Below are positions 8,668-60,191 of a stretch of 64,000 nucleotides of DNA, piece after piece. A program made the translations under genes and the position numbers. The notes beneath the pieces were generated by a model. That model ran no database searches. It had not been told where the DNA came from and saw only the letters and a program-made list of their open reading frames with translations. The stretch spans positions 180,908-244,907 of the forward strand of contig JAVYML010000001.1 of the NCBI GenBank assembly GCA_038736355.1, written 5' to 3'. The stretch is from Candidatus Hadarchaeales archaeon. GTDB lineage: Archaea; Hadarchaeota; Hadarchaeia; Hadarchaeales; WYZ-LMO6. Numbering within the stretch: position 1 is the first letter of the stretch; each line of letters opens with the position of its first letter.

Positions 8668-10329
8668 TCAGAATTCAGGGGAGGGGGGGGAGCTCTCTCC
8701 CTTCTTCTCCTTTCCTTCCTTCTCCTTCTCCTCCGTCTTCACGGCCGCGATAACGTCGTCAATCCTCAAAATCATTTCCGCGGCTTCGCTTGCAGACTTA
8801 ATGGCCTGGAGCTTAACCCTGAGCGGCTCCACCACTCCCTTTTCCATCATGTCCATGATCTGCCCACTCACCACCTCTATTCCCTTATACTTCCCATCGG
8901 GTTTCTCATGCTCTGCACGGAGTTTCACCAAGATGTCGATGGGATCGAGACCGGCATTCTCCGCCAACGTCCTTGGGATGATTTCCAAGGCCTCGGCGAA
9001 GGCGTTTACGGCCAGGGCTTCCCTTCCGCCCAGCTCCTTGGAGTAGTCACGGAGTTCCTTCGCCAGCTCCATCTCACAGGCCCCTCCTCCTGGCAGGATC
9101 CTCCCATCCTCGAGGGCCACACAGGCCACAGAAACACCATCGTGTACGGCTCTCTCCAGCTCATCCACCACGTGCTCCGTGCCTCCCCTCACGAGAATGG
9201 TCACGGCCTTCGGGTCCTTGCATCCCTCCACGAACACCATTTCCTCCCCAGCCACCTTCCTTTCCTCCACCAACTCCGCCGAACCCAAATCGGAGGGACT
9301 CAGGTCCTTGAGGCTCATCACCACCCTTCCACCGGTGGCCTCCGCCAGCTTCTGCATGTCGGATTCCTTAACCCTCCTCACGGCCAAGATACCAGCCTTG
9401 GCCAGATAGTGCTGGGCCACATCGTCTATACCCTTCTGGCAGAGGACCACGTTGGCGCCCACCCTCTTCACCTGTTCCACCATATCGGCGAGCATCTTCC
9501 TCTCCTCATCCAAGAAGCTCTTCAGCTGCTCGGGGTCGGTGATGTTGATCTTCGCATCCGTCTCCGTCTTCTCCACCTCGAAGGCGCTGGCGATGAGGGC
9601 TATCTTGGCATTCTTCACCCTCTTGGGCATGCCCGGATGGACCACCTCCTTGTCAAGCACTATACCCTTCACCAGCTGGGAGTCGGAGGAAGAACCACCT
9701 ATCTTCTTCTCCAGCTTGATCTTGTCCCTATCCGCCTTGATCTTTCCGTTCTCCTCACGGGCTATCTGCCTAGCCGCTTCCACGATGAGGTTCACCAGCT
9801 TGTCCCCTTTGATCTCGGATCCCTTGCTACTTATGGAAGTGGCCACGATCTTCTTCAGCGTCTCCACATCATCCTTGGAAATCGGGCGGGCGATTTTCTG
9901 CAGGACCTCCTGAGCCTTGGCCGCGGCCTTCCTATAACCGCTGGCAATGACCGTGGCATGGATATCCTGATCCAGGAGTTCCTCCGCCTTCTTCAGTAGT
10001 TCCCCCGCCAACACCACGGCCGTGGTGGTCCCATCCCCCGCCTCATCCTCCTGGGTTTTCGCGATCTCCACCATCATCTTGGCGGCGGGGTGCTCCACAT
10101 CCATCTCCTTCAGGATGGTAACACCATCGTTGGTGATCGTGATGTCCCCCAGACTGTCCACCAACATCTTGTCCATCCCCCGCGGACCTAGGGTGGTGCG
10201 AATGGCCTCAGCTATTACCCTGGCTGCCATGATGTTCATGTGCTGGGCATCACGCCCCAAGTACCTGATGGCCTTCTCTGGAAGGACCAGTACGGGAGTA
10301 CCACCTAGTTGGGCCACCGGCGCTGCCAT
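8668..10329 (-). CDS. ths: thermosome subunit (group II chaperonin)
   Basis: 553 aa; [34 protein letters not shown]-terminal GGM-less acidic tail. Confidence 0.95.
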
Positions 10330-16683: not shown

Positions 16684-17118
16684 TTGCCCCCCCTCTGGCT
16701 CTTCCCCCTCCTCTCAGCCTTCCCCTTCTTCGAGGGCAGGTACGCCCTTCCCCTCGCCATCCTCTGGGGTCTCTCCCCCCTCACCGCCTACTTCCTCTGC
16801 ACCCTTCCCAACCTAGCCGTCATCCCGGCCATCCTGCTTGCCCTGGAGAGGATGGTACCTCCCCTGAGGAGGAGGTGGGAATGGGTGGACAACTTCTTCA
16901 GGCTGATGGTCAGGAAAAAACTCAGGAAAAAGCACTTCCTCGCCCTCTTCACCTTCGTCTCCCTACCCCTTCCAGGAACCGGGGCCTACACCGGAACGAT
17001 CCTAGCCTTCATGCTCGGGATGAGGGGATGGAAACCCGCTCTCACCGTGGCCCTGGGAGTGCTCACTGCCAATGCCCTAACCGCCCTCCCCGCCACCGGT
17101 CTCTCCCTCTGGCTTTAA
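16684..17118 (+). CDS. small multidrug-export-like membrane protein (Sm_multidrug_ex family)
   Basis: 144 aa, 4 TM; conserved LPLPGTGAYTG motif. Confidence 0.55.
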   Translation: MPPLWLFPLLSAFPFFEGRYALPLAILWGLSPLTAYFLCTLPNLAVIPAILLALERMVPPLRRRWEWVDNFFRLMVRKKLRKKHFLALFTFVSLPLPGTGAYTGTILAFMLGMRGWKPALTVALGVLTANALTALPATGLSLWL

Positions 17119-18195
17119 CCTGCCCCTCCCGTACTTGTACTCGATGGCACAGGAACCCTCCGAAGAAACCATGCACGGTCCCACCGGGCTCCTGGGTGTA
17201 CAGACCTTCCCGAAGAGGGGACAATCGGGGGGATCGAGGAGACCCCTCAGCACCCTGTCGCACCTGCAGGAGGGATGGGGCTTGAACTCCCTTCCCTCCA
17301 GCTCCTTCAGCTCGTCCTCGTACCTCTTCCTGGCATCATACTCTTCGAATTCCTCCTTGAGGGCCATGCCAGACTTCGGAATCACGGGAAAGCCCCTCCA
17401 GTCCAGATCGAAGGGCTCGAAAACTTCCTCCATTACCCTGAGTGCCTTCACATTGCCCTCCGGTCTCACCGAGCGTGTGTATTCATTTTTGACCCCCACT
17501 TCCCCCTTTTGGATCATCCTCGCCAGGAGGTAAACCCCCATCAACAGGTCGAGGGGTTCGAAACCCGCCACCACCTGGGGGATTCCGTACTTCTCCGCTA
17601 TCTCCTCGTAGGGCTTGGTACCTATCACGGTGGAAACATGCCCCGGTTCTATCAGCCCCTGAATCTTGGTCTCACCCATCTCCAGGAGGGCCTTGATAGC
17701 CGGGGGGATGTAACGATGACAGCAAAGGATGGAGAAGTTAGGGGGAGGTCTTCGGAGGAGGGTGACGGCCGTGGAAGGGGCGGTGGTTTCGAAACCTATG
17801 GCCAAGAAAACCACCTCCTTCTTCGTTTTCTCCGCAAGTCCCACCGCATCCCTGATGCTGTAAACCACTCTCACCTCTGCCCCCTCTCCCCTGAGCCCCG
17901 CGAGCGAACCACTTTCCCCCGGCACTCCCACCATATCCCCAAAAGTTGCCACCACCTTTCCCTTCCTTGCCAGCAAGAGGGCCTCCTCTATCTCCCTCTG
18001 GGTGGTCACACAAACGGGACATCCTGGTCCCTGCCTTATCTTGATCCCACAGGGTTCCAGAAGGCGATCCAAACCGTACCTCACGAGGGTATCCTGGTGG
18101 GTCCCGCACACGTGCATCAGGAAGAGGTTCAACCCCATCTTCCTGAGTTCCCCCACGATCCTGCTCGCGGTCTCCCTATCCCTGAACCTGAACAT
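17077..18195 (-). CDS. hypD: [NiFe]-hydrogenase maturation factor HypD
   Basis: 372 aa; CGTHQ, GPGCPVCVT, C-terminal CxxC...CPVC motifs. Confidence 0.9.
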   Translation of the reverse strand: MFRFRDRETASRIVGELRKMGLNLFLMHVCGTHQDTLVRYGLDRLLEPCGIKIRQGPGCPVCVTTQREIEEALLLARKGKVVATFGDMVGVPGESGSLAGLRGEGAEVRVVYSIRDAVGLAEKTKKEVVFLAIGFETTAPSTAVTLLRRPPPNFSILCCHRYIPPAIKALLEMGETKIQGLIEPGHVSTVIGTKPYEEIAEKYGIPQVVAGFEPLDLLMGVYLLARMIQKGEVGVKNEYTRSVRPEGNVKALRVMEEVFEPFDLDWRGFPVIPKSGMALKEEFEEYDARKRYEDELKELEGREFKPHPSCRCDRVLRGLLDPPDCPLFGKVCTPRSPVGPCMVSSEGSCAIEYKYGRGRLKPEGETGGGEGG

Positions 18196-18197
18196 GC

Positions 18198-18416
18198 TCA
18201 GCCCTGCGAGAGGAGTTCCTGCCAGAGCCTCAGGCTCTCCCTCGCCTCCTCCTCGTCTAAGACTTGGATGGCAAAACCGGCATGGACGATCACGTACTGC
18301 CCCACCTCCACCTCCACGAGGGAGATGTCCACTTCCCTCAGGGTGCCATCCCCGAAGTCCACCTTGGCGAGCTCACCCTTCTTCTCCACCACCCTCGCCG
18401 GAATGGCCAGACACAT
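18198..18416 (-). CDS. hypC: [NiFe]-hydrogenase maturation factor HypC
   Basis: 72 aa; starts MCLAIP. Confidence 0.9.
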   Translation of the reverse strand: MCLAIPARVVEKKGELAKVDFGDGTLREVDISLVEVEVGQYVIVHAGFAIQVLDEEEARESLRLWQELLSQG

Positions 18417-18917
18417 CTACCTTCCCTCCCCTTCCCCGCATAAATCCCTCAGCACGAGGGAGAGGGTATCGGCCAGCCTCTCGGCCGCCTCCTCCAGCTC
18501 CCTGGTCATTCCTTCCCCGAAATCCGTATCCCCGGGCTGGACACAGAGGAGGGCCACTTTGCATCCCACCACTTCCCTCACGTATTCGCAGAAGATCCTG
18601 AGGGGGAGGAGATGCGTGGAAACGGTTTCTACGGGTAGCTCTTCCGAAGTCAAGAACCTGCTTTCCCCCGGTCTCAGCCCCAAGAGGGCTGCGTCCACGA
18701 GGAGGAGATGGCTGGGCCTGACCCTCTCCACCTCCTCCAAGAAATTCTCCGCCACCGTTTCGCATTCCAGCAATTCCACCCCCTTTCCCACCCTTCCTTC
18801 CATCTTCCTCACAACCTCCAGTCCCACCGCGTCGTCCTTTCTGAGGGGATTACCTATTCCCATCACCATGGCCTTTCTGCAACCCGCAAACCATTCCCTG
18901 AGCTCCCTCTCCATCAT
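18417..18917 (-). CDS. hydrogenase maturation endopeptidase (HycI/HyaD family)
   Basis: 166 aa; MGIGNPLRKDDAVG motif. Confidence 0.85.
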   Translation of the reverse strand: MMERELREWFAGCRKAMVMGIGNPLRKDDAVGLEVVRKMEGRVGKGVELLECETVAENFLEEVERVRPSHLLLVDAALLGLRPGESRFLTSEELPVETVSTHLLPLRIFCEYVREVVGCKVALLCVQPGDTDFGEGMTRELEEAAERLADTLSLVLRDLCGEGEGR

Positions 18918-18947
18918 AGAAGGGGGTAGGAAGGAAGGAAAAGACTT

Positions 18948-20405
18948 TCAGGGTCTCTTGAGGGTGTAAAGGAGGTTGCGGTCCTTATCGTAGATCTTTA
19001 CCTCTAGGGGCATCTTGCCCAGGGCGAAGTGGGTGGCACAGGCGTAGCAGGGATCGTAGGCCCTGAAGGCCATTTCAATCATGTTCAAGATCCCATCCGT
19101 GACCTTCCCTCCAGAAATGAGGGCCTTGGCAGCATCCCTTATGGACATGCAGATGGGAGCCACATTGTTGGTGGTGGCCACGATGAGGTTGGCCTTCTTG
19201 ATCAAACCTTCCTCCGTGAGTTGGTAGTGATGGTACAGGGTCCCCCTGGCCGCCTCCACTACCCCCACACCTTCCCCTGGAGTCCCCACCGGATTCCTCA
19301 CTTCCTTGCTGGTGATCTCAGGATCCTGGGCAAGCTCCAGTGCCCTCTCGCAGGCATAGAGGAGCTCTATCAGCCTGGCCCAGTGGAAGGCCAGGGTGGA
19401 GTGTACGGGTTTTCCTCCCAGCGTTTCGTACATCCTCTCGTACTCCTGCTGGGCAAGGGGTGTGGCCATCCCATCGGCGGCATTTAACCTTGCCAGTGGA
19501 CCCACTCTGTAAATACCGCTGTCGGGACCGTCCACCAATCCCTTCCACCCCACCTTCTTCAAGTAGGTGAACTTCACGTAAGTCCACTCCTCCACGTGCT
19601 CCCCTATCACATCCAGGTACTGGGATGGTGCAAACTTTACAAACTCCCTGCCATTGGGATCCACCACCCTGATCTTCCCGTCGTAGAAGTTCACGCGGTT
19701 CTTCTCATCGACCAATCCCATGTAGTAGGTCCTCAGGGTGTAGGCATCACTCTTTATCAGCTCCACGTATTTCTGGTTCTTCAAAACGACCTGATCGAAG
19801 ATCTGGAGGGCCTTTTGGGCAAAGTCCACGCAGGACCTGGCCATCTTCTCTATTTCCTTCCTCTCTTCCTCGCTCAAGGGTTTGCTCACCCCTCCGGGCA
19901 AGCCGCACACGGGATGGGTGGCCTTTCCACCCAGGATGGCCGTAATCCTCTGACCATAGGCCCTGTGTTTGATCACTTCCTTCCCCACTTCCAGCCCCAC
20001 CTTCTTGATCACTCCCAGGATGTTCCTCTCGGCCGGTGGAGCATCCGGACCCACCACGAAGTCTGGTCCCCCTAGATAGAAGAAGTGCAGGGTGTGGTCG
20101 TAGATGTAATAACCCGAATAGATCAGCTCCCTGAGCTTCTTGGCCGCGGGCGGCGGATCCACGTGGAAGGCTGCATCCAGGGCCTTCGTGGAGGCCATGT
20201 GGTGGGCCACCGGACAGACACCACAGATCCTGGAGGTGATTTGTGGCATCAGTTCCGCCCTTCTTCCCTCACAGAAACGCTCGAAGCCCCTCAGCTCTGG
20301 AACCTGGAGGTAAGCGTTTGCCACGTCACCCTTCTCGTCCAAGAAAATCGAGATCTTTCCGTGGCCTTCGAGTCTGGTGATGGGATCTATGGTGATGACC
20401 TTCAT
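18948..20405 (-). CDS. [NiFe]-hydrogenase large subunit (cytoplasmic group 3-like)
   Basis: 485 aa; N-terminal RLEGHGKI...RICGVCPVAHH; C-terminal DPCYACATH followed by a cleavable tail. Confidence 0.9.
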   Translation of the reverse strand: MKVITIDPITRLEGHGKISIFLDEKGDVANAYLQVPELRGFERFCEGRRAELMPQITSRICGVCPVAHHMASTKALDAAFHVDPPPAAKKLRELIYSGYYIYDHTLHFFYLGGPDFVVGPDAPPAERNILGVIKKVGLEVGKEVIKHRAYGQRITAILGGKATHPVCGLPGGVSKPLSEEERKEIEKMARSCVDFAQKALQIFDQVVLKNQKYVELIKSDAYTLRTYYMGLVDEKNRVNFYDGKIRVVDPNGREFVKFAPSQYLDVIGEHVEEWTYVKFTYLKKVGWKGLVDGPDSGIYRVGPLARLNAADGMATPLAQQEYERMYETLGGKPVHSTLAFHWARLIELLYACERALELAQDPEITSKEVRNPVGTPGEGVGVVEAARGTLYHHYQLTEEGLIKKANLIVATTNNVAPICMSIRDAAKALISGGKVTDGILNMIEMAFRAYDPCYACATHFALGKMPLEVKIYDKDRNLLYTLKRP

Positions 20406-21394
20406 TTCTTCTTCACCCTCCTTCCCAGCACGGAAGCCGGTAGGGTATACATGTAGAAGGTTCCCACGGGATCCACTATCTGATCCACCAACTTCTGGGG
20501 ATCATACCCTGCCTCTCTTTCCCCCTCCACCCCGAGAATGGAGGAAAGGGCGCTGATCATGGCCGCCCCCTGGTCAACCTCATTGGGGCAGGGACCATGG
20601 CATCCGGTGCACGGCATGTTGCCGTTTAAGCACCTGGCCTCGCACCCACCCCTAGTAGCCGGACCCATGCAGATGATACCCTGGGCGAGGAAACACTTCT
20701 CCGGATCCAGCTCTACCTCGTAAGGTCTTTTCACCTGAGAAATCGAGAGTTTCTCGGGCTTCGTCTTGTTCCTAGGACACTCATCACATACAGACTTCAG
20801 GGGAGCCAGTACCGACCCCCTCGGTGGGAGTTCACCCTTGGCTATGGCCTCCACCGCCTTCAGGATGAGGTTGGGAGGAGGCGGGCAACCGGGGAGGTAG
20901 TAATCTACCTCCACCGTTTGATCCAGGGTTTTGACCGTGTCGTAAAACTCCGGAAGCTTCAGCTCACCCTCCTTTACCCTGGTGGAAGTCTTGGGGACTA
21001 TTCGCTGGGGATTCTCGGTGGAGGGGGATTCCAGATAGGCCCTCGCAAAGATCTCCTCCCTGTCCGCCAAGTTGGCGAGACCAGGGACTCCTCCGGTGTA
21101 GGAACAGGCCCCAAAGGCCACCAACACCTTTGACTTTTTCCTGAGGAGCTTCGCCAGGTGCTCCTGCTCTTCCGTCCTCACAGCTCCGTTGAAGAAGCAA
21201 ACGTCTATGAAGCCATCGGGCATGGCTTCTACATCCTTGTACTTCACATCGAGGGCCACAGGCCAAAAGACGATGTCGGCCAACTCCACCACATCAAGAA
21301 TTTTTTCATCGATATCCAGAACCCCTATCTCACAACCCCCACAACTGGCCGCCCAGTAGAAGGCAAACTTCAATTTCTGCTTCGGCTTGGCCAT
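20402..21394 (-). CDS. [NiFe]-hydrogenase small subunit with extra C-terminal [4Fe-4S] region, no Tat signal (MvhG-like)
   Basis: 330 aa; FYWAASCGGCEI proximal cluster motif; C-terminal Cys-rich CDECP.../CMGPATRGGCEARCLNGNMPCTGCHGPCP. Confidence 0.85.
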   Translation of the reverse strand: MAKPKQKLKFAFYWAASCGGCEIGVLDIDEKILDVVELADIVFWPVALDVKYKDVEAMPDGFIDVCFFNGAVRTEEQEHLAKLLRKKSKVLVAFGACSYTGGVPGLANLADREEIFARAYLESPSTENPQRIVPKTSTRVKEGELKLPEFYDTVKTLDQTVEVDYYLPGCPPPPNLILKAVEAIAKGELPPRGSVLAPLKSVCDECPRNKTKPEKLSISQVKRPYEVELDPEKCFLAQGIICMGPATRGGCEARCLNGNMPCTGCHGPCPNEVDQGAAMISALSSILGVEGEREAGYDPQKLVDQIVDPVGTFYMYTLPASVLGRRVKKK

Positions 21395-21457: not shown

Positions 21458-22453
21458 TCAGGAGATGTCGTTCATGTAAAGCAGCTTGTTCTGGGGGAGG
21501 TAGGTAATGGTCATGGCATCCCCTATCACCAAGGGATCTTTCATCTCGAACTCCAGCACATCCCCAGGGGAGAAGTCGATCCACGTCTCTCCCCGTACCC
21601 ACATCCTGAGATTTCTGATCCTGTGCTCGGTGTTATCCCCACCCGCCCTAGCCCCCCAGCCGAAGAGACTCTTTCCCTTCCTGTTGGCCGCCTTGTAATC
21701 AATGTACCTAATCCTGTTATCCAAGCGGTTGTCCAGGTACATCTCTATGACCATTCCATCGAAAACGATCCTGGCTTCGTGCCACCGGTTATCATTGATG
21801 GAGTGCATGTTGTCCGCCGCCAGTCTTTCCCCTCCATACCAAACCTCCAGCTTATCGCTGTTTTCGTTGTAAGCGAACACGTACCCCCCGGCTGGGGGCC
21901 AATTCTCGTTCTCGGGAGTAACACCACAATAGGCGTAAAACCATGTCGAACCCTCTCCCCGACCTCCCCCTGCCCAGAATTGAAATTCCACCACGAAACT
22001 GGAGGGGGGTGGGGACAAAGTGTACTCCAGTTGTCCGTTCTCTCTGGCGGAAAGGGTGAGCCTAACCCATCGGTTCTCCGGAAGATAGAGGGCACTGCGC
22101 TTGAGGACCCCCAAAGGTGGGGAGTCCATGTCCTCGTAAATGAGATACTCAGCCCTTTTGCCATTGAGGCGTGGATAAAGGGCTTCCACTTCCCTTCCGC
22201 TCTTCTTCACCACCAAATCCCCCCAGTAGAAGGCCCCGTCCCTTATGAGGAAGGCGTTCCTTATGATGTCTCCCCCTAAGTGGTGGATGACCAGTCTTTG
22301 GCTTCTCCATTCAAATCCATCCACACCCAGCTTGGCATCTAGAGTCCTCACTGAAAAGCTCACCCCACCCAGAACCACGATGACCGCCGTTGCGATGGAA
22401 AAGACTATGGCGATGAGGATGATCTCCGCGATGAGGGGGGAGACTCCCTTCAC
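21458..22453 (-). CDS. type IV pilin-like (class III signal peptide) protein with ConA/LamG-like beta-sandwich domain
   Basis: 331 aa; N-terminus MKGVSPLIAEIILIAIVFSIATAVIVV is an archaeal prepilin-type signal; C-terminal WHEARIVFDGMVIEMYLDNRL-type lectin/LamG pattern. Confidence 0.55.
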   Translation of the reverse strand: MKGVSPLIAEIILIAIVFSIATAVIVVLGGVSFSVRTLDAKLGVDGFEWRSQRLVIHHLGGDIIRNAFLIRDGAFYWGDLVVKKSGREVEALYPRLNGKRAEYLIYEDMDSPPLGVLKRSALYLPENRWVRLTLSARENGQLEYTLSPPPSSFVVEFQFWAGGGRGEGSTWFYAYCGVTPENENWPPAGGYVFAYNENSDKLEVWYGGERLAADNMHSINDNRWHEARIVFDGMVIEMYLDNRLDNRIRYIDYKAANRKGKSLFGWGARAGGDNTEHRIRNLRMWVRGETWIDFSPGDVLEFEMKDPLVIGDAMTITYLPQNKLLYMNDIS

Positions 22454-22512
22454 ATTTATCCTTTCTCTCGCCCGATTAGAAGTTTTTTATAGGGGAAGTC
22501 TATATACAAACG

Positions 22513-24228
22513 ATGGTTACCTACAGTGACCGTCCATGGATTAAAATTTATGAGCAAATAGGTCTTCCCTATAAATTCGACTATCCCAAGATACCACTTT
22601 TCGAACTCATCGATCGGGCGGCTGCGGAGTATCCCGAAAGCAAAGCCATGGTGTACTTCGATAGGGAGTATACCTATGCCCAGTTGAAGTCCTACACGGA
22701 TCGGCTGGCCACGGCCCTTAGCAAGAAGATGGGGATAAAGAAGGGGGATGTGGTGGGAGTACAGCTCTTCAACTCTCCCCAGTTCATCATAGGAGTCTAC
22801 GGTTCCTTAAAGGCCGGGGCCATTGTAGCCCTCATGAGCCCCCTCCTCCCCACCCCGGAGTTGGAGTACGAGATCAGCACTTCTGGCGCTAGGGTGGTCA
22901 TTACCGACGAGTCCAGAGTGGAGGAAATAAAGGCCATGAAACACCGCACCAAGCTGGAACAAATCATTGTTACCTCCGTGAAGGATTTCTCTCCCTCGGA
23001 AGATCCCGTGCCTCCGAAGGTGGAAGGAGCCATCCAACTGCGCCAACTCCTCTCGGAAACGGAAGCGGACCCGCCCAAGCTGGAAATAGATCCGGTAGAA
23101 GATGTTGCCCTCCTCTTCTTCACCGGGGGTTCCACCGGCATTCCCAAGGGGGTGATGCTCACCCACTACAACCTCACCACCAACATCGTCCAAACCTTCG
23201 GTCCTACGGCGGCAGGTATGCTGGAACCGAACAAAGGAAACTTTTCGGTGATGGGATGTCTGCCCTTCTTCCACATTTATGGTTTCACTTGCGCCATGAA
23301 CGTGGCCCTTTATTGGGCGGGATGCCTCCTGCTCGTTCCCGATGCCAGAGATACGAAGATGATTTACGAGCTACTGGTAAAATACCGTCCCCTTTTGATG
23401 CCCGGGGTTCCTACCCAATTCATGAGGTTGCTCCAAGAAAAGAATGTGGACCTTTCCGAACTGAAGGGATGTGTACCCTATAGCGGTGCTGCTGCCCTTC
23501 CCCCAGAGGTTTCCAAACAATTTGAGGAGAAAGCGGGTGTATTGGTCAGCGAGGGTTATGGGCTTTCGGAAGCCAGTCCCGTCACCCATTCCAACTTCGT
23601 GGCCATCCTCAAGGGTGCGGGGATCGATCTTGGGTTACCGGTAAAGCTGGGATCCATAGGCATACCCGTGCCCGATACGGATGTTAAAATAGTGGACATA
23701 GAAACGGGGACGAAGGAAATGCCCGTGGGGGAGCCAGGGGAAATGATCATCAAAGGACCACAGATAATGAAGGGTTACTGGCCCACCCCGGGCAGTGGTT
23801 TAAGGGATGGATGGCTGTATACGGGGGATGTGGCGAAGATGGACGAAGATGGCTACTTCTACATCGTCGACCGCACGAAAGACATGATCAACGTCTCGGG
23901 TTTGAAGGTCTATGGAAGGGTGGTGGACGATGTTCTCTACGAACATCCGGCTGTGGCCAAGGCAGCTGCTGTGGGCATACCCGATCCCGAGCGCCCCGGA
24001 AGCGAAAGGGTGAAGGCCTTCATCGAACTAAAGGAAGGATACGAACCCAGCGAGGAGCTGAAGGAGGATATTCTCAGACATTGTAGGGAGAGGCTTCCGC
24101 CCTACGCCGTCCCCAAATTCATAGAATTCAGGAAGGAACTTCCCCTTACCGTTACAGAGAAGGTTTTCAAACGGAAGCTCAGGGAAGAAGAAATAGAGAA
24201 GATGAAGAAGGCTGGGCTCCTTAAGTAA
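22513..24228 (+). CDS. AMP-dependent acyl-CoA synthetase/ligase
   Basis: 571 aa; AMP-binding motif FFTGGSTGIPKGVMLTHYN, YGLSE, GWLYTGDV. TATA-like TTTTTTATAGGGG sits about 40 nt upstream. Confidence 0.9.
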   Translation: MVTYSDRPWIKIYEQIGLPYKFDYPKIPLFELIDRAAAEYPESKAMVYFDREYTYAQLKSYTDRLATALSKKMGIKKGDVVGVQLFNSPQFIIGVYGSLKAGAIVALMSPLLPTPELEYEISTSGARVVITDESRVEEIKAMKHRTKLEQIIVTSVKDFSPSEDPVPPKVEGAIQLRQLLSETEADPPKLEIDPVEDVALLFFTGGSTGIPKGVMLTHYNLTTNIVQTFGPTAAGMLEPNKGNFSVMGCLPFFHIYGFTCAMNVALYWAGCLLLVPDARDTKMIYELLVKYRPLLMPGVPTQFMRLLQEKNVDLSELKGCVPYSGAAALPPEVSKQFEEKAGVLVSEGYGLSEASPVTHSNFVAILKGAGIDLGLPVKLGSIGIPVPDTDVKIVDIETGTKEMPVGEPGEMIIKGPQIMKGYWPTPGSGLRDGWLYTGDVAKMDEDGYFYIVDRTKDMINVSGLKVYGRVVDDVLYEHPAVAKAAAVGIPDPERPGSERVKAFIELKEGYEPSEELKEDILRHCRERLPPYAVPKFIEFRKELPLTVTEKVFKRKLREEEIEKMKKAGLLK

Positions 24229-24246
24229 AAAAAGAAAGAAAAAAGT

Positions 24247-24818
24247 TCAAACGTATTCGTCCACGAAGATCGTTGGCACTTGTGAAGCGATCTTTCCCAT
24301 CTGTTGCGTCGCCTTGATGTACCTCATCACCTTGCTCATGTCTCCCTGGAGTTTCATCTTGCCAGTGAGCACCAGCTTGGTGGCATCGCTCTCGGCCTTC
24401 GCCAGCTTCTTCCAAGAATCGTAAGAACCTATCAGTTTGAAGCCCACCTGCACCTCGTTGGGATCCTTCAGCAGGCGCATACCCGTGCACTTCCCATCCT
24501 TGAGCCCGACGTACACATAGATGGTCTTCCCTTTCAGGTATTCCTTCATGACGGCCTTGAATTCCTCCTGGATTTTCTTGGCCTCCTCAAAGGTAATTCC
24601 TGCCTTTTCCGCGAGCTGCTTGATTTCCGCATCAGACATCGTTTCCGCCTTCTGCAACTTTTCCACGGGGACCTCGTCTATCTGGAAGATGAAATCTCCG
24701 TTCCATCCCACGCCCCATCCCTTGCCAGCCTCGGCCATTACCGGATCGCTGTTAAGTCTTTTGACATATTCCTCGTTCCAAGCTTGGGTTCCAAAAGCCA
24801 ACTTTGTCATTCTCATCC
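24247..24818 (-). CDS. SCP2 sterol-carrier-like domain protein (paralog A)
   Basis: Start taken at MRMTKLAFGTQAW (ATG 24818); the track ORF extends to 25077 through an unlikely His/Gly-rich extension. Shares GKGWGVGWNGDFIFQID...LTGKMKLQGDMSKVMRYIKATQ with paralog B. Confidence 0.6.
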
Positions 24819-24908
24819 CCCTTTTAGGCTTCCTACACCTCCATAAATACCCTTCGGGACTCCCCTCTGGAACTTCAAGGGAAAAAAGAAAAAAGGGAAA
24901 AACTATGT

Positions 24909-25406
24909 TTAGACCATCTCGTCCAAGAATTCCGTCGGAATCTGTGAAGCGATCTTTCCCATGAGCTGCGTCGCCTTGATGTACCTCATCACCTTGCTCA
25001 TGTCTCCCTGGAGTTTCATCTTGCCAGTGAGCACCAGCTTGGTGGCGTCTGCTTCTCCCTTCGCCAGCTTCTTCCAAGATTCATAGTCTCCTATTAGCTT
25101 GAAACCGGCTTGCACTTCGTTGGGATTCTTAATGACCTTCGCACCCGTACACTTCCCATCCTTCAGACCTATCCAAGTATATACCGTGGTACCAGAGACA
25201 TACTTCTCCATCATTTCCTTCATGTACTTCTTCAGATCCCCTTCGGGCAGTTGCTCTATTTTCTCCACTGGCACCTTGTCTATCTGGAAGATGAAATCTC
25301 CGTTCCATCCCACGCCCCATCCCTTGCCTGCTTCTTCCAGTTCTTTGCTCTCATTCAGTTTCTTGACATATTCCTCGAGCCATTCAGGTGTCGGAAAAGG
25401 TACCAT
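24909..25406 (-). CDS. SCP2 sterol-carrier-like domain protein (paralog B)
   Basis: 165 aa; two exactly identical DNA tracts of about 80 nt and 52 nt shared with paralog A (24305-24384 vs 24967-25046; 24676-24727 vs 25278-25328). Confidence 0.6.
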   Translation of the reverse strand: MVPFPTPEWLEEYVKKLNESKELEEAGKGWGVGWNGDFIFQIDKVPVEKIEQLPEGDLKKYMKEMMEKYVSGTTVYTWIGLKDGKCTGAKVIKNPNEVQAGFKLIGDYESWKKLAKGEADATKLVLTGKMKLQGDMSKVMRYIKATQLMGKIASQIPTEFLDEMV

Positions 25407-25469
25407 TCGTCCACCTCTTTTTTTGGTTTACACTTTTCTTTCAGTCCATCCTCTATAAAACCTTTCCCT

Positions 25470-26078
25470 TCAAACTTTCTCTTTAACCAAAAGTTTGGGA
25501 AGGAGTTTCATGAGGGGCGCAAGCCTCATCGCGTCTGCTACCTTACCTTCCACCTTGTATCTACCCATTAAAGCACCCCAGATGGGATCCACCTTTCCCG
25601 TCAGGAGCCCCATCAAATCCGCGGTAGAGGCAAAGACGGTGAGATCTGCCATCATCGCTCCCCTTCCACCCCCAGACAGTTTTCCCTCACTCACCTTGAA
25701 GTGACCAACCATGGGAGAATCCGTTGCTTTGAAGTTCACAATGAGAGTTTTCATTTCCTCTAGCTTTTTCCTGATCTCGGGATCCTCCTCAGCCAAAACC
25801 CCCAATCCTTCCCAAAGCACATCCAGAAATCTGGAGGAGGCTTGAGGTACTTCCCTCACAAAGCTCGCCAAATCCAGCGTTTCCATCTTCTCCACCATCT
25901 TGGAGAGGAGATCGGGAACGGCCCTCAGGAATTCCCTCACCCCTACGCTCTGAATGGTATCCATCAAAAAGGAAAGACTAGACTTCAGTTCTTCCTCTGA
26001 TAGAGTTAGGGCCCCTTCCACCACCGATCTGAGGTCCTCCCCCACTCTCTCCGATAGGATTAATTGGCGCCTCCTCAT
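25470..26078 (-). CDS. helical N-domain + C-terminal SCP2-like domain protein
   Basis: 202 aa; C-terminus GKLSGGGRGAMMADLTVFASTADLMGLLTGKVDPIWGALMGRYKVEGK is SCP2-like. Confidence 0.5.
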   Translation of the reverse strand: MRRRQLILSERVGEDLRSVVEGALTLSEEELKSSLSFLMDTIQSVGVREFLRAVPDLLSKMVEKMETLDLASFVREVPQASSRFLDVLWEGLGVLAEEDPEIRKKLEEMKTLIVNFKATDSPMVGHFKVSEGKLSGGGRGAMMADLTVFASTADLMGLLTGKVDPIWGALMGRYKVEGKVADAMRLAPLMKLLPKLLVKEKV

Positions 26079-27302
26079 TTTATCGTTGTGGAAAAAGGTA
26101 GATTGGGAGCCTCGCTGATGTATGCTGCCATCTTTGCCGGAGGGGGAATCATAGGTTCGCTTGCCTCCTCCTTTTTCCTCATGATGGAAGACCTAGGAAC
26201 CAATCCACTGGGAATGGGCTTTCTAGCCATCGCCCCCCTTTTGGGTCTTTCCCTGCTCGGTCTCTCCCTGATGCTCTGGTGGAAAAGACTCGTCACGAAA
26301 GAAGGTTTTGGAAGGATGGTGGCCTTGCTCATGGCTGGCACCGCCCTAGCTGGTCTCTCCTGCCCTCTAAAGAATTTCTGGCTCCTAGGAGCCTCCAGAA
26401 TCCTTCTCGGAACCTGCTCTATGGGACTCGTCCTCCTCCTCCTGGTGCTGAGCCTAGAGTGGTTCATGGAAAGACTCAACCTCATGGTACTCATGGGCAT
26501 CCTCTCCCTGCTCCTCGGCACACTCTTCTCATCCTTCTTTGGTTCCCTTATCACCCATCTGCTTGGAGGCTGGGAGAAACTCCCCCTCTTTTTGGGATTG
26601 CTCGCAGGGGGATGTTTTCTCCTCTGGCTCCTCCTCGGACCCTTCCTCCCTCCCCTCCCAGATGGGGGCCATACAACAACCGAAACCTTTCAAACCCTCA
26701 AGAATCCTTCCCTTTTCTATTCTTCCCTTATGCTCTACACCCTTCTGGCCTACCTGGGAGTCTTCTCCTTCATCTTCGTGAAACTTCCAGGGAGCTGGGA
26801 ACTGGCCCTTTTGAGTAAGGAGATGATCTTTTCCCTTCCCTTCTATTTGGCAGCGGCAGCCCACTCCCTTCTGGTGGTCCTCGCCTCTCCCCTCTTCCTC
26901 TCCCTCGCCTCCGAAAAGAAGAGGAGAAGATCCATGTGTCTGATCTCGGGCTTACTCTCACCCCTTTTCGGTCTCCTAACCTTCAACCTACCCTTTTCAG
27001 ATGGCTGGATGATCCTCATCCTAGAAAGCATAACGCTGGCCCTCCTCCAACTCTCCATCCTTCTCCCCCTCTGGATTCTCCTGTTGCAGGAACTGCCCGG
27101 CGTGAGTCTAGAAAACTTCATCCCCTCCATGGGCGGCATCCTTTTCCTTTCTGGAGCCATGGGGGGCTCAGCCACCCTAATCCTGGGATGGGCTCTTTTC
27201 CAAAGCTGGTCAACCTTTCGGATGGTGATCAACCTACTCGTCCTGAGCTGGGGGGCCAGCGCCCTAGGCGGATATTTCCTCACTAGGGAAGGAATAGAGT
27301 AA
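26064..27302 (+). CDS. polytopic membrane transporter (MFS-like)
   Basis: 412 aa, about 12 hydrophobic helices; the true start may be the internal MYAAIFAGGG. Confidence 0.5.
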   Translation: MAPPHFIVVEKGRLGASLMYAAIFAGGGIIGSLASSFFLMMEDLGTNPLGMGFLAIAPLLGLSLLGLSLMLWWKRLVTKEGFGRMVALLMAGTALAGLSCPLKNFWLLGASRILLGTCSMGLVLLLLVLSLEWFMERLNLMVLMGILSLLLGTLFSSFFGSLITHLLGGWEKLPLFLGLLAGGCFLLWLLLGPFLPPLPDGGHTTTETFQTLKNPSLFYSSLMLYTLLAYLGVFSFIFVKLPGSWELALLSKEMIFSLPFYLAAAAHSLLVVLASPLFLSLASEKKRRRSMCLISGLLSPLFGLLTFNLPFSDGWMILILESITLALLQLSILLPLWILLLQELPGVSLENFIPSMGGILFLSGAMGGSATLILGWALFQSWSTFRMVINLLVLSWGASALGGYFLTREGIE

Positions 27303-27334
27303 ACTTTTTTTTATCCCACCGCAAAGAAACTACG
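27303..27334 (+). promoter_or_regulatory. TATA-like box (TTTTTTTTTATCCC) immediately upstream of aor; the transcript is probably leaderless
   Basis: AT-rich hexamer run 20-30 nt before the ATG at 27335 in an otherwise GC-rich context. Confidence 0.4.
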
Positions 27335-29191
27335 TTGCCCGGATATATGGGGAAGCTCCTGAGGGTGGATCTCTCCCACGGAAAGATAGTGGAAGAAGAG
27401 GTCAAAGAAACTGAAGTGAGAAAGTTTTTGGGTTGCAGGGGTCTGGGGGCCCGCTATCTCTTCGAAGTCAGAAAGGGAGCAGATCCCCTGGGACCCGAGA
27501 ACAAACTCATTTTCATGACAGGTCTTCTCACGGGAACAGGCTTTCCTACCGCTGGAAGATACGATGTGGTTTCCAAATCTCCTCAGACGGGTTTTTACGG
27601 TCATGCCAACTCCGCCGGTTTTTGGGGAGTGGACTTCAAGCGCACGGGTTTCGATGGCATCATCTTTGAGGGGATTTCTCCTAACCCCGTCTACCTGTTC
27701 GTGGAGGACGGGAGGGCTGAACTGAGGGATGCCAAGCATCTTTGGGGCAAGGGTGTGCATGAAACCACCAGAATGTTGAAGGAGGAGCTGGGTGAGAGGG
27801 TCAACGTGGCAGCCATAGGGCCTGCGGGGGAGAACTTGGTCAGGTATGCTTCCATCCTCAACGATTACAACAGGGCCGCGGGGAGATGCGGCATGGGGAC
27901 AGTGATGGGCTCCAAAAAGCTCAAGGCCGTTGCCGTGAGGGGAACGAAAAAAGTGGAAGTGGCAGACCCAGACAGGTTGAAGGAGCTGACCAAGGAAGTC
28001 ATAGAGTTGGCCGGTCAAAACATGTTGAAGACCAGTCTGGAAACCTTTGGAACCAACTCGGGCTTCGATTTGGTAAACGCCATGGGTGGAATGCCCACGA
28101 GGAACTGGCAGGAAGGAGTCTTCCCCGCTGGGGAAAAGATCAACGGACCTGCCCTTTCCGACAAGGTCTTGGTGGGAACCAAAGGATGTTATGTCTGCCC
28201 CATCCATTGCGCCAGACTCTCGGAGGTGAAAAGTGGACCCTACGCCTGCAAGACGGAGGGACCGGAGTACGAATCGGTTGGGGCCTTGGGATCCATGTGC
28301 GGGGTGGATAGCATGGAAGCCATCACCTATGCCCACCACCTGTGCAACGATTATGGGATGGACACGATAAGCACGGGAAGCACGATCGCCTTCGCCATGG
28401 AATGTTTTGAGAAGGGCATCCTGACGAAGGAGGATACTGGCGGTTTGGAGCTGAGGTTCGGTGATGCCGATACCATGGTAAAACTGGTACACCTGATAGC
28501 CCGCAGGGAAGGAATAGGGAACCTTCTAGCCGAAGGAACGAAGAGGATGTCGGAGAAACTGGGGAAGGGATCGGAGAGGTTCGCCATGCACTCGAAGGGA
28601 CTGGAGTTCGCGGCCTATGATCCAAGGGCGGCCAAAATCGTGGGGCTCGCCTATGCCACCTCCAACAGGGGAGGATGCCACATCAATGCCTACGTCCAGC
28701 TTCAAGCCTTCATAGGAGCCCCACAGCCCCTGCTTCCCGAAGACATAAGAGAACCCTTCTTCGATCCCCTCTCGGAAGACCCCATTTTGGGAAGGGTGGT
28801 GAAGGAAACTGAGGATGCCTATGCCTTCGTGGAGGCACTTGGGATGTGCAAGTTTCTGGGCTGGATGATAACCGCCGACAAGGTGGTGGAAGCCGTGGTG
28901 GCTGCTACGGGATGGAAGGATTTCGATGAAAGGGAACTGAGGAGATGTGGGGAAAGGATCTACAACTTGGAGAGGATGTTCAACGTGAGGGAAGGTTTGA
29001 ACCGTTCCCACGATTCCCTACCCAAGCGGCTACTGGAAGAACCCCACCCCTCCGGACCGGCCGCTGGACAGGTGGTACATCTGGAGCCCATGCTCGATGC
29101 CTATTATCAATACCGTGGATGGGACAGGAACGGCATACCCACCAAGGAAAAGCTGGCGGAGCTCGACCTCCTAGACCTTCCGATGGCCTGA
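27335..29191 (+). CDS. aor: tungsten-containing aldehyde:ferredoxin oxidoreductase
   Basis: 618 aa; N-terminal MGKLLRVDLSHGKIVEEEV...FLGCRGLGARYLF, AOR_N plus catalytic domains with the pterin-binding motif region. Confidence 0.9.
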   Translation: MPGYMGKLLRVDLSHGKIVEEEVKETEVRKFLGCRGLGARYLFEVRKGADPLGPENKLIFMTGLLTGTGFPTAGRYDVVSKSPQTGFYGHANSAGFWGVDFKRTGFDGIIFEGISPNPVYLFVEDGRAELRDAKHLWGKGVHETTRMLKEELGERVNVAAIGPAGENLVRYASILNDYNRAAGRCGMGTVMGSKKLKAVAVRGTKKVEVADPDRLKELTKEVIELAGQNMLKTSLETFGTNSGFDLVNAMGGMPTRNWQEGVFPAGEKINGPALSDKVLVGTKGCYVCPIHCARLSEVKSGPYACKTEGPEYESVGALGSMCGVDSMEAITYAHHLCNDYGMDTISTGSTIAFAMECFEKGILTKEDTGGLELRFGDADTMVKLVHLIARREGIGNLLAEGTKRMSEKLGKGSERFAMHSKGLEFAAYDPRAAKIVGLAYATSNRGGCHINAYVQLQAFIGAPQPLLPEDIREPFFDPLSEDPILGRVVKETEDAYAFVEALGMCKFLGWMITADKVVEAVVAATGWKDFDERELRRCGERIYNLERMFNVREGLNRSHDSLPKRLLEEPHPSGPAAGQVVHLEPMLDAYYQYRGWDRNGIPTKEKLAELDLLDLPMA

Positions 29192-29200
29192 GGGAAGAGG

Positions 29201-31117
29201 ATGAATCCCTTTCCCGTTCTCTTTTCCCCTATTTCCATAGGTAGGATGGTGGTGAGGAATCGCATCGTGATGCCCGCCCTCACCACCGGCTATGCCTTTG
29301 GGGAGGTCACGGACCAGCTCAAGCACTATTTCGAGGCCAGGGCAAAGGGAGGAGCAGGTCTCATCGTGGTGGGAATAGCCGCCGTGGAAAAGGGAACGGA
29401 ATACGTGATCTCTGCCTCCGACGACTCCTACATCCCCGGTCTGAGGGAACTGGCGGAGACCATCCACGCCCACGGGGCCAAGACCGCCCTCCAGCTTTGG
29501 CATCCAGGAAGGTATGAGTTCGTGGAGATCACGGGGAGGGAACCCGTCTCTGCCTCCGACGTCCCTCCCCCCATCTTCAGTAGGGTGAAGCCCAGGGCCC
29601 TCACCGTTCCGGAAATCAAGAGGATAGAGGAGGAGTTCGCACAGGCGGCGGGGAGGGCGAAGGAAGCTGGCTTCGATGCGGTGGAATTCATAGGTTCAGC
29701 AGGCTATTTGATAAGCCAGTTCCTCTCCCCCGTCACCAACAGACGCACCGACGAATACGGTGGATCCTTGGAAAACAGGATGAGGTTCCTCCTCGAAATC
29801 GTGGAGCTGACCAAGGAAGTGGTGGGAAAGGACTTCCCGCTGATGTGCCGCCTCTCCGGGGACGAACTCATCCCGGGAGGGAATACGCTTTCCGAGATGA
29901 AAATAGTGGCCAGGAAGCTGGCGGAAGTGGGCATTTCCGCCATCAACGTTACCGCGGGATGGCATGAATCGAGGGTTCCCATGATCACCATGGAGGTCCC
30001 GAGGGGAGGATACGTGTACCTGGCGGAGGGTATCAAAGAAGCCCTGAAGGGAACGGAGGTGAGGGTGGCGGCCAGTAACCGCATCAACGAGCCCTTCCTA
30101 GCCGAAAGGATCCTGAGGGAGGGAAAGGCGGATTTGATCTCCATGGGAAGGGCACTGGTAGCCGATCCCGAGTTCCCCAGGAAGGCACAAGAGGGAAGGG
30201 TGGAGGACATCGTCACCTGCGTGGCCTGCTGTCAGGGTTGTTTCGACAGGCTCTTCGAGGGAAGGCCCCTAACGTGCATGGTCAACCCTGGTGTGGGAAG
30301 GGAGGCCGAAGTGAAGGTGGAACCGGCGGTCAAGAAGAAAAGGGTGCTGGTCGTGGGGGGAGGACCGGGAGGACTGAAGGTGGCGGAAATGGCCGCCCTC
30401 AGAGGCCATCAAGTCATCCTCTGCGAGGAAGATGGGGAGCTGGGAGGACAGCTCAACTTGGCTTCCATCACACCAGGAAGGGAGGAACTGGGAACGGTGG
30501 TAAGGGAACTGGCCCTCCATGCCAAGAAGGCTGGAGTGGAAATAAGGCTGAGAACGAAGGTGGATGCCGACATGGTGGAGGAAATAGAACCGGATGCCGT
30601 GGTATTGGCCACCGGTGCTCTGCCCATCGTTCCTTCTTTCCCCGGCGTTGACCTTCCCCACGTAGTACAGGCTTGGGAGGTTTTGAAGGGGAGGGAAGTG
30701 GGAAAGAGGGTGGTGGTAGTGGGAGGAGGAGGGGTGGGATGCTATACTGCCCATTACCTCTCTTCCAGGGGAAGGGAAGTGACTCTTCTGGAAATGCTGG
30801 AGAAAGTGGCTGGTGATGTTGGTATCACCACCCGTTGGATCCTGAGGGAGAACCTGAAGAAGGGAGGCGTGAGGATCTTCACTTCCACCAAAGTGAAGGA
30901 AATCCGCCCCGAAGGGGTGGTGGCCACGAGAGGGGAGGTGGAAGAGGTTTTCCCAGCGGACTCGGTGGTGCTGGCCGTGGGGTCCAGACCCAACTCGGGT
31001 TTGGTCGAGGAACTGAGGGACAAAGTGGAGGAACTTTACCTAGTGGGGGACTGCCTCCAACCCAGAAAGGCCTTGGATGCCATTCGCGAAGGGTGGGAGG
31101 TGGGTCTCAAGCTCTAG
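29201..31117 (+). CDS. Old-Yellow-Enzyme-like FMN oxidoreductase fused to FAD/NAD(P)-binding domain (2,4-dienoyl-CoA reductase / NADH oxidase family)
   Basis: 638 aa; OYE TIM-barrel N-terminus (FSPISIGRMVVRNRIVMPAL, HAHGAK..QLWHPGR); C-terminal dinucleotide motifs VLVVGGGPGGLKVAE and VVVVGGGGVGCYTA. Confidence 0.85.
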   Translation: MNPFPVLFSPISIGRMVVRNRIVMPALTTGYAFGEVTDQLKHYFEARAKGGAGLIVVGIAAVEKGTEYVISASDDSYIPGLRELAETIHAHGAKTALQLWHPGRYEFVEITGREPVSASDVPPPIFSRVKPRALTVPEIKRIEEEFAQAAGRAKEAGFDAVEFIGSAGYLISQFLSPVTNRRTDEYGGSLENRMRFLLEIVELTKEVVGKDFPLMCRLSGDELIPGGNTLSEMKIVARKLAEVGISAINVTAGWHESRVPMITMEVPRGGYVYLAEGIKEALKGTEVRVAASNRINEPFLAERILREGKADLISMGRALVADPEFPRKAQEGRVEDIVTCVACCQGCFDRLFEGRPLTCMVNPGVGREAEVKVEPAVKKKRVLVVGGGPGGLKVAEMAALRGHQVILCEEDGELGGQLNLASITPGREELGTVVRELALHAKKAGVEIRLRTKVDADMVEEIEPDAVVLATGALPIVPSFPGVDLPHVVQAWEVLKGREVGKRVVVVGGGGVGCYTAHYLSSRGREVTLLEMLEKVAGDVGITTRWILRENLKKGGVRIFTSTKVKEIRPEGVVATRGEVEEVFPADSVVLAVGSRPNSGLVEELRDKVEELYLVGDCLQPRKALDAIREGWEVGLKL

Positions 31118-60100: not shown

Positions 60101-60191
60101 TATGAACGGCGTCCCTGATTTTGCTGGGATCGAAATCTACCAGCCTTCCGTCCCTCTTTTTTATCTTCTGAATTGGCATATCCAAAATCAT
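57168..60191 (-). CDS. nrdJ: ribonucleotide reductase, class II (adenosylcobalamin-dependent, NrdJ-like) with N-terminal ATP-cone and one intein
   Basis: 1007 aa; ATP-cone [16 protein letters not shown]; catalytic ATNP^[intein]^[19 protein letters not shown]; C-terminal Cys pair. Confidence 0.9.
58128..59057 (-). mobile_element. intein (310 aa) with LAGLIDADG homing-endonuclease domain inserted in the RNR active-site motif
   Basis: Begins Cys (NP|CVPVYT...), ends ...FCVHN|CGEQ; the C at +1 is the RNR cysteine of the NPCGEQ motif. LAGLIDADG blocks [13 protein letters not shown] and [12 protein letters not shown]. Boundary codons were verified on the sequence. Confidence 0.85.

Follow-up and report, generated by a model that had tools for sequence, protein, structure and literature searches.

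A predicted modular type IV pilin of Hadarchaeales with a lectin-like domain nested in the pilin head

Modular type IV pilins that bind glycans through ConA-like lectin modules are documented in bacteria (PMC9934059, PMC8179133). In Streptococcus sanguinis PilC, a pilin moiety is joined to immunoglobulin (Ig)-like and ConA-like lectin modules; this minor pilin has been modelled at the tip of the pilus and binds glycans through its module (PMC9934059, PMC8179133). A similarly close system is the set of modular pilins with PF13385 in the catalogue of Raynaud et al. (PMC9934059, PMC8179133). The subject here is a gene on the minus strand (21458..22453) of a 64-kb stretch of contig JAVYML010000001.1, from a hot-spring Hadarchaeales archaeon; this whole stretch is referred to as the window. 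The 331-amino-acid (aa) product resembles PilC in its class III signal, small pilin moiety and ConA-like superfamily module, and is likely to be an archaeal type IV pilin of the modular kind, minor and adhesive. It differs from PilC in being archaeal, of the Pilin_N type and without the bacterial IPR012902 motif. Its module is nested in a loop of the pilin head, whereas the PilC-type module is grafted at the C-terminus via a linker; it is also L-type-lectin-like, drawn from an unannotated family and only predicted to bind, whereas the PilC module has been compared with galectin-7.

Within the archaea, the closest systems on the pilin side are the PilA adhesion pilins of Haloferax volcanii and the Pilin_N family (PF07790, formerly DUF1628; electron cryo-microscopy structure 8fj5), and the window protein is related to the Pilin_N pilins of Euryarchaeota. 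The UpsA pilin of Sulfolobales, which recognizes S-layer N-glycans in a species-specific manner (PMC7064770), is likewise an archaeal type IV pilin with an exposed region that recognizes glycans and mediates cell-cell contact, but recognition there is attributed to a variable region of the pilin itself and not from a separate inserted lectin-fold domain. Sulfolobus bindosome proteins are similar as large extracellular binding proteins with a prepilin-type signal and dependence on a PilB/PilC-type system. They have a solute-binding-protein fold without a pilin head, whereas the window protein has a true pilin head, and neither a family-model scan nor a fold search found a solute-binding-protein family or fold in it. 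On the lectin side, the legume-lectin-like domain of Methanocaldococcus jannaschii (PDB 7elv/7exo, mannose-bound), ERGIC-53, VIP36, Emp46/47p and peanut lectin are close, yet identity is 10-17%. In contrast to these L-type lectins, the window family is without the ~11-residue metal-binding loop, the window protein has Gly at the position aligned with the GAD aspartate, and no Pfam L-type lectin model matches it.

A pilin divided by an inserted domain

Comparison with a 159-aa pilin (P0099) reveals the layout of the protein. In BLASTP alignments, residues 2-102 match P0099 residues 9-115 at 44% identity (E 4e-20), and residues 287-330 match P0099 residues 115-158 at 48% identity (E 1e-11). The two matched halves are contiguous in the small pilin and ~184 residues apart in the window protein, which makes the latter a complete pilin with a foreign domain inserted. 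The same two-stretch pattern is seen with a 204-aa protein (P0102) and with the 166-aa pilin that adjoins the orthologue at locus L006 (multiple alignment A2). The first half of the pilin head comprises residues 30-102 (22148..22366, minus strand), delimited by the BLASTP match to P0099, alignment A2 and the beta strands of the predicted model; the second comprises residues 287-331 (21461..21595, minus strand; four beta strands, ...DFSPGDVLEFEMKDPLVIGDAMTITYLPQNKLLYMNDIS), again placed by BLASTP to P0099. Between them lies the inserted ConA-like/L-type-lectin-like beta-sandwich, residues 103-286 (184 aa; 21596..22147, minus strand). In the P0099 model, the insertion point at residue 115 falls in a poorly structured stretch between strands 90-94 and 118-122. 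The modelled head of the small pilin has a type IV pilus subunit of Haloferax volcanii as its best match and is an Ig-like beta-sandwich, similar to that of filament-forming archaeal pilins.

The window protein is thus a complete small (~155-aa) pilin with a lectin-like domain nested in one loop of the head. It joins in one polypeptide a pilin module and a module that is not specific to pilus biology, which is what characterizes a modular type IV pilin in the sense of Raynaud et al. (2021). The initial annotation of this gene had placed a beta-sandwich across the remaining about 290 aa behind the signal, in place of a minimal pilin. A ConA-like/lectin sandwich does exist, but only in residues ~103-286, and residues 2-102 together with 287-330 form a complete small pilin by the BLASTP match to P0099. 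A layout of signal peptide plus 290-aa lectin is ruled out by the normal pilin head in residues 30-102 and 287-331.

The N-terminus of the product reads MKG-VSPLIAEIILIAIVFSIATAVIVVLGG. At the very start of the protein, a short charged leader ending in [KRDE][GA] runs straight into a hydrophobic helix of ~20 residues, the arrangement by which class III signals are recognized. The leader, M-K-G (residues 1-3; 22445..22453, minus strand), is read from the sequence, and prepilin-peptidase cleavage is predicted after Gly3, at KG/VS (the slash marking the cut). Leaders at the same position in orthologues are VERG, MEKG, VGRG or ...RDKKG. Junctions reported for archaeal pilins include KG/QV in Methanococcus EpdB-D and RA/VS and DA/VS in Haloferax PilA1-6 (PMC4371748), and the predicted KG/VS junction is of the same kind. 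The initial annotation had proposed a class III (prepilin-type) signal for this open reading frame, and that proposal holds up well: a scan of all six frames of the window for class-III-type motifs returned a single site, in the pilin gene, and a relaxed pattern gave the same result.

The hydrophobic helix of the mature pilin is assigned to residues 4-29 (VSPLIAEIILIAIVFSIATAVIVVLG; 22367..22444, minus strand) from hydropathy, conservation and the model, in which it spans residues 6-23. Residues ~1-38 are the sole hydrophobic segment of the protein (Kyte-Doolittle; KD19 maximum 3.04 at residue 11). Conservation follows the same division into parts, with mean pairwise identity among orthologues highest in the helix (92%), 80% in the C-terminal half of the head and lowest in the inserted domain (64%). 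Matches to Pilin_N (PF07790, residues 2-66) and TIGR02537 both begin at residue 2, and PF07790 matches are carried by the orthologue P0006 (precomputed) and by the neighbouring small pilins.

The pilin gene is real. It has homologues in eight clusters (331-345 aa) that align over 100% of their length at 55-99% identity (alignment A1). All three of the homologue clusters that have a source name are from Hadarchaeales. An identical sequence is present on a Logan contig of 57 kb, and five NCBI metagenome-assembled genomes have a 99% variant. Translation starts at a GTG at 22453 and ends at a stop codon at 21458-21460; the 13 open codons of the frame upstream of the GTG contain no other start codon. 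A candidate archaeal TATA box, TATAAAAAA (22483..22491, minus strand; read from the sequence), is centred ~34 nt upstream of the GTG, inside the 59-bp divergent intergenic region shared with an acyl-CoA ligase gene.

Fold, family and putative ligand site of the lectin-like domain

An AlphaFold2 model of the whole window protein (mean predicted local distance difference test score, pLDDT, 79.6; predicted template modelling score 0.75) gives the insert a beta-sandwich fold at pLDDT mostly >85, an outcome that the initial annotation had anticipated. A Foldseek search is consistent with a lectin-like fold of the inserted domain, which has the jelly roll of legume lectins. A search of 1.84 billion cluster representatives (50% clustering) with a profile of nine orthologues matched 645 of them, nearly all only at profile positions ~103-289 and with E-values down to 3e-62. 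The hosts are proteins of widely varying size, up to 6,061 aa, in which the domain often stands after DUF2341. Proteins of this family (P0009-P0157) are nameless or called 'hypothetical protein' in every source. The family is well conserved, and its consensus runs, in order, through the motifs YEDM..P.GTL, A.YD..N.WVRLT, G.LEY, F.FW.GGG.GADA.W.Y.Y, TP..ED..GGY, YDEY.D.IQ...G, DNS.WH, IY.DG, I.Y.D..R and G..FGWGARTGG.NNEHRIRN. PHROGs has no match for the window protein; in the same resource, matches to a tail-fibre-like N-terminus occur in just one other family member (P0025).

Assignment of the domain to a superfamily depends on a profile of the domain by itself. The whole-protein profile gave only insignificant matches to the LamG motif among PDB sequences. 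A profile built from 30 diverse copies of the domain (alignment A3) matches 7elv/7exo at E 1.3e-5 over nearly the whole domain, whereas with the LamG domains of neurexin, laminin and SHBG it aligns only along ~35 residues round a WH...(I/V)...(Y)(V)DG motif. The LamG-like label of the initial annotation is hence right at the level of the ConA-like clan, but the closest solved relative is an L-type lectin domain, and LamG likeness is limited to that local WH...DG motif. A Pfam scan of the 30 family members at E <= 0.01 gave matches to PF06439 in 20, PF18483 in 14 (best 4.6e-8) and PF13385 in 13. For the window protein itself, Laminin_G_3 (PF13385), suggested earlier as a check, does give a match, but only across residues 188-285 and at 21.5 bits against a cut-off of 27.6; PF02210 reaches 15.3 bits against 22.9, no L-type lectin model (PF18483, PF00139, PF03388) is reported, and the DUF1080/3-keto-disaccharide hydrolase model PF06439 is not above its cut-off. 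Since curated thresholds for LamG, L-type lectin and DUF1080 are all missed, the insert is filed at the level of the ConA-like clan only, where by fold and by profile it is nearest to the L-type lectins; Pfam has no dedicated model for it.

Alignment of the family with 7elv by hidden Markov model pairs GADA with GADG, GGY with LGYGG and GFGARTGG..N.H with GFTGGTGGAKN. In legume lectins, these aligned motifs are the sugar-binding loops. GAD is kept in the orthologues P0002, P0003, P0007 and P0008, and DEY also in P0002, P0003 and P0008, so the ancestral pilin probably carried the usual site of the family.

Pilus loci, proposed assembly and rival roles

The most divergent orthologue (P0008, 55% identity; loci L006, L007 and L009) places the protein among pilus genes. 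Its acyl-CoA ligase neighbour is kept, at 79-81% identity, and the [NiFe] hydrogenase genes that follow the pilin gene in the window are replaced by a gene for a 166-172-aa pilin and then by a convergent pair that encodes a 623-aa T2SSF platform and a 652-aa T2SSE ATPase. Upstream of this pair lie genes for MinD-like and KaiC-like ATPases, two radical-SAM proteins and a third pilin-like protein. In GCA_038851755.1 and GCA_038849165.1, the orthologue (P0007) is adjacent to the hydrogenase, and the assembly-machinery locus is on other contigs, where both assemblies encode a glycosyltransferase, a 146-aa pilin-like protein, radical-SAM, KaiC-like and ParA-like proteins, a PilB3_N+T2SSE ATPase and T2SSF. 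Both also have, on other contigs, a pilin cluster in which four small pilins (140-168 aa) are accompanied by a 263-aa protein and by two DUF2341 proteins with class III signals. In this cluster (L027 361-7435 in GCA_038849165.1, and L028), the Pilin_N-type pilins measure 148, 155, 140 and 168 aa and the DUF2341 proteins 593 and 577 aa, and the 263-aa protein carries a class III signal as well. The 577-aa DUF2341 protein contains a lectin-like domain as in the window protein (37% identity, E 8e-32), a match which shows that within a single genome prepilin-type proteins have acquired the domain at least two times.

The make-up of the pilus-assembly locus is conserved and somewhat unusual (L009 1136-9872; L018 2762-10833; L019, L020, L021, L023, L025). 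It comprises a GT2 glycosyltransferase, a 146-167-aa pilin-like protein with a non-canonical junction (..FPG/ISP.. or ..LPE/VSP..), one or two ~440-aa radical-SAM proteins, KaiC-like and ParA/MinD-like proteins, PilB3_N+T2SSE and T2SSF. A thermosome gene directly follows the locus in most genomes, standing immediately after T2SSF in sister genomes (L018 10920-12563). The thermosome gene of the window (8668-10329, minus strand) has other flanking genes, for a 228-aa protein and an ODP/metallo-beta-lactamase-like protein, and tblastn detected no T2SSF remnant there. It may be the orthologue of the thermosome gene in the sister genomes, with loss or relocation of the pilus locus, or else a paralogue.

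The route from preprotein to displayed adhesin can be outlined from these features. The preprotein would enter the membrane via its N-terminal hydrophobic segment, and a PibD/FlaK-type prepilin peptidase would cut the three-residue leader off after Gly3 (MKG/VSP...). A PilB-type (PilB3-like) ATPase and a PilC/TadC-type platform, presumed from the sister genomes to be encoded in trans, would then pull the helix from the membrane and build the pilus, leaving the inserted domain, to judge from the architecture, displayed outside the filament. The exposed domain would bind a ligand, probably a glycan on a surface, polymer or other cell. The protein would be a low-abundance subunit, most likely minor and possibly located at the tip. 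Minor status is favored by the several ~140-170-aa pilins encoded in the same and related genomes, which are better candidates for the major subunit, and, by analogy, by the bulky modular pilins of characterized bacteria, which are minor and modelled at the tip. The suggestion in the initial annotation of an adhesive or minor pilin is supported as a candidate role.

Several observations weigh against the modular-pilin assignment or parts of it. The family models that place the N-terminus among archaeal pilins score narrowly below their curated cut-offs for the window protein (PF07790, 25.0 bits against 25.2; TIGR02537, 17.2 against 20), and the Pfam models for the insert fall short of theirs as well. 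No pilB/pilC or peptidase gene was found in the 64-kb window, where tblastn with the T2SSF, ATPase and small pilin of L006 found only the pilin gene, and the five T2SSF clusters that were traced are all in other assemblies, those that could be placed belonging to sister species and not to the window's own. The pilB/pilC loci that the initial annotation recommended looking for exist beside the P0008 orthologue and on other contigs of sister genomes, but not in the window; archaeal pilin genes away from the ATPase/TadC module are common (PMC4858521). The body of a filament might have no room for a head enlarged by 184 aa, and expression and assembly of the pilin are predictions.

The ligand site provides a further group of such observations. 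In the profile alignment, the family lacks any equivalent of the ~11-residue 7elv segment (wlndfdapatt) flanked by the aligned VEVD and DHIAID; in legume lectins, this segment forms the metal-binding loop. The window copy carries G168 (GEG) at a position occupied by D (GAD) in 7elv and in 24 of 29 family members, and it also has N196 in place of D (24 of 29), N198 in place of Y/F (25 of 29), A270 in place of T (24 of 29) and T275 in place of N (23 of 29). The best-conserved positions of the family are exactly those at which the window copy departs from the consensus. Because the most conserved acidic residues of the family are replaced, at positions aligned with the sugar and metal loops of L-type lectins, the sugar-binding appendage proposed in the initial annotation is not established; carbohydrate binding by the window protein is a prediction, and specificity may have changed or been lost.

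Among other explanations, the one that survives best, though we regard it as unlikely, is a surface-anchored binding protein resembling the Sulfolobus bindosome, with a processed class III signal, held at the envelope by its helix or a short pseudopilus and capturing a polymer or substrate. Non-pilin substrate-binding proteins also use archaeal class III signals and need their own PilB/PilC-type system (PMC4371748), and the pilin gene stands alone in the window among metabolic genes, as such a role would allow. Bindosome subunits, however, are solute-binding proteins with an acquired signal, whereas in the window protein the pilin head is complete and shares homology with small pilins, and its distant orthologue sits in a locus with a pilin and PilB/PilC. 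Distinctly less probable is a role as major subunit, in which the protein would form a filament of its own, covered over its entire surface with lectin-like domains. The strong conservation of the helix and the C-terminal head half is as expected for many packing contacts, and the gene has a putative promoter of its own; yet the same genomes also code for several pilins of 140-170 aa that share the fold, and bulky modular pilins of characterized systems are minor and modelled at the tip (PMC8179133, PMC9934059). It is improbable to a still greater degree that the inserted domain is a surface-displayed enzyme instead of a binding module, either a ConA-clan glycoside hydrolase/lyase or a 3-keto-disaccharide hydrolase of the DUF1080 type.

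The gene order of the window raises a last alternative. The [NiFe] hydrogenase operon (17077-21394, minus strand) begins 63 bp beyond the pilin gene with the small subunit (20402-21394) and large subunit (18948-20405), followed by the HycI protease (18417-18917), HypC and HypD (17077-18195). Its best NCBIfam matches are F420-non-reducing, Vhu/Mvh-type G and A, at 211.6 and 449.8 bits against equivalog cut-offs of 450 and 800, and no MvhD/Hdr-type partner was noticed beside it. With the hydrogenase encoded immediately downstream on the same strand, the pilin-like protein could be imagined as its accessory or anchor protein, all the more as the order pilin-small subunit-large subunit-HycI-HypC-HypD is kept on all traced contigs of six homologue clusters (among them P0001, P0004, P0005, P0007 and the window sequence). 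But the whole ~17-kb neighbourhood is collinear in the genomes with closer homologues, so adjacency carries little information, and in the most divergent orthologue pilus genes stand there instead, with the acyl-CoA ligase neighbour retained. Between the pilin gene and the hydrogenase there is a TTTAAAAG element. The small subunit, which starts MAKPKQKLKFAFYWAAS, has no visible twin-arginine motif, and its best family matches, under cut-off, are to cytoplasmic enzymes, so a secreted pilin-type protein would not meet the hydrogenase. A link of this kind, confined to close collinear relatives and broken in the distant orthologue, is rejected as scarcely credible.

Neighbouring genes and significance for Hadarchaeales

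On its other side, the pilin gene is divergent from the gene for the long-chain acyl-CoA ligase (22513-24228), across the 59-bp spacer. That ligase opens a cluster (22513-31117) that is conserved across Hadarchaeales and includes two to three SCP2-domain proteins, an MFS transporter, an aldehyde:ferredoxin oxidoreductase and an Fe-S flavoenzyme of the OYE/2,4-dienoyl-CoA-reductase-like kind, the best NCBIfam match of which is BaiCD/FadH-type. Its contents suggest a role in lipid or fatty-acid metabolism.

The initial annotation had also linked the pilin to a large adhesin island, a claim that the window does not bear out. The sole large surface-type protein nearby (44648-47680, plus strand) lies 22 kb away and is presumably what was meant. 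It is a secreted protein of 1,010 aa with a Sec-type signal (...SSVRTVSA/SPDP), not a class III signal, and with right-handed beta-helix/NosD repeats, a purple-acid-phosphatase-N-like domain and Big_1/invasin Ig domains. The GC content at 44-48 kb is 0.495, the lowest in the window, against ~0.56 elsewhere, on which basis the gene may have been acquired horizontally. The other long open reading frames scanned encode housekeeping proteins, namely phosphoenolpyruvate (PEP)/pyruvate dikinase-type, EF-2 and ribonucleotide reductase, and one beta-propeller protein (61098-62960, Beta_propel). The large subunit of the ribonucleotide reductase (57168-60191, minus strand; ATP-cone and barrel) contains an intein with a LAGLIDADG homing-endonuclease domain at residues ~418-688. 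A tRNA scan of the window found no tRNA genes.

Nearly all Hadarchaeales are known from metagenomes only, and their cell surface is little understood. At least some of them encode a full type IV pilus toolkit, consisting of a PilB3-like ATPase, a TadC/PilC platform and several small pilins, and the same genomes encode at least two class-III-signal proteins with the same lectin-like domain. A 2024 study of alkane-degrading Hadarchaeota (Ca. Melinoarchaeum) stated that no type IV pilin PilA is encoded (PMC11297162), whereas in the Hadarchaeales loci described here archaeal-type pilins are numerous and a PilB/PilC pair is present. The published negative may stem from the use of bacterial PilA models or from a true divergence of the lineages.

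Modular pilins are known in bacteria, and the window protein, as their archaeal counterpart, is interesting but not surprising. What is new is the combination in an archaeon, the nested rather than appended topology and the unannotated family of the insert. The nested architecture carries the idea of the modular pilin from bacteria to archaea, with the modules joined differently, and the insert points to a substantial family, with 645 cluster representatives, that is missed by the present Pfam models. None of this overturns current understanding, but it makes for a useful annotation.

A more far-reaching proposal, which we consider speculative and probably wrong in at least some of its parts, would join these strands. 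The Hadarchaeales pilin, with its nested domain from an unnamed ConA-like family common to giant surface proteins and tail-fibre-like proteins, would serve as a specific recognition device for partner cells, the organism's own glycans or a mineral or polymer surface, and the window lineage would have re-tooled the site (D168G, D196N, Y198N, T270A, N275T) toward a different, possibly non-carbohydrate ligand. If true, this would be the first archaeal 'insertion-type' modular pilin, and it would offer a way into understanding how attachment to surfaces or partners works in these uncultured archaea of the subsurface and of hot springs.

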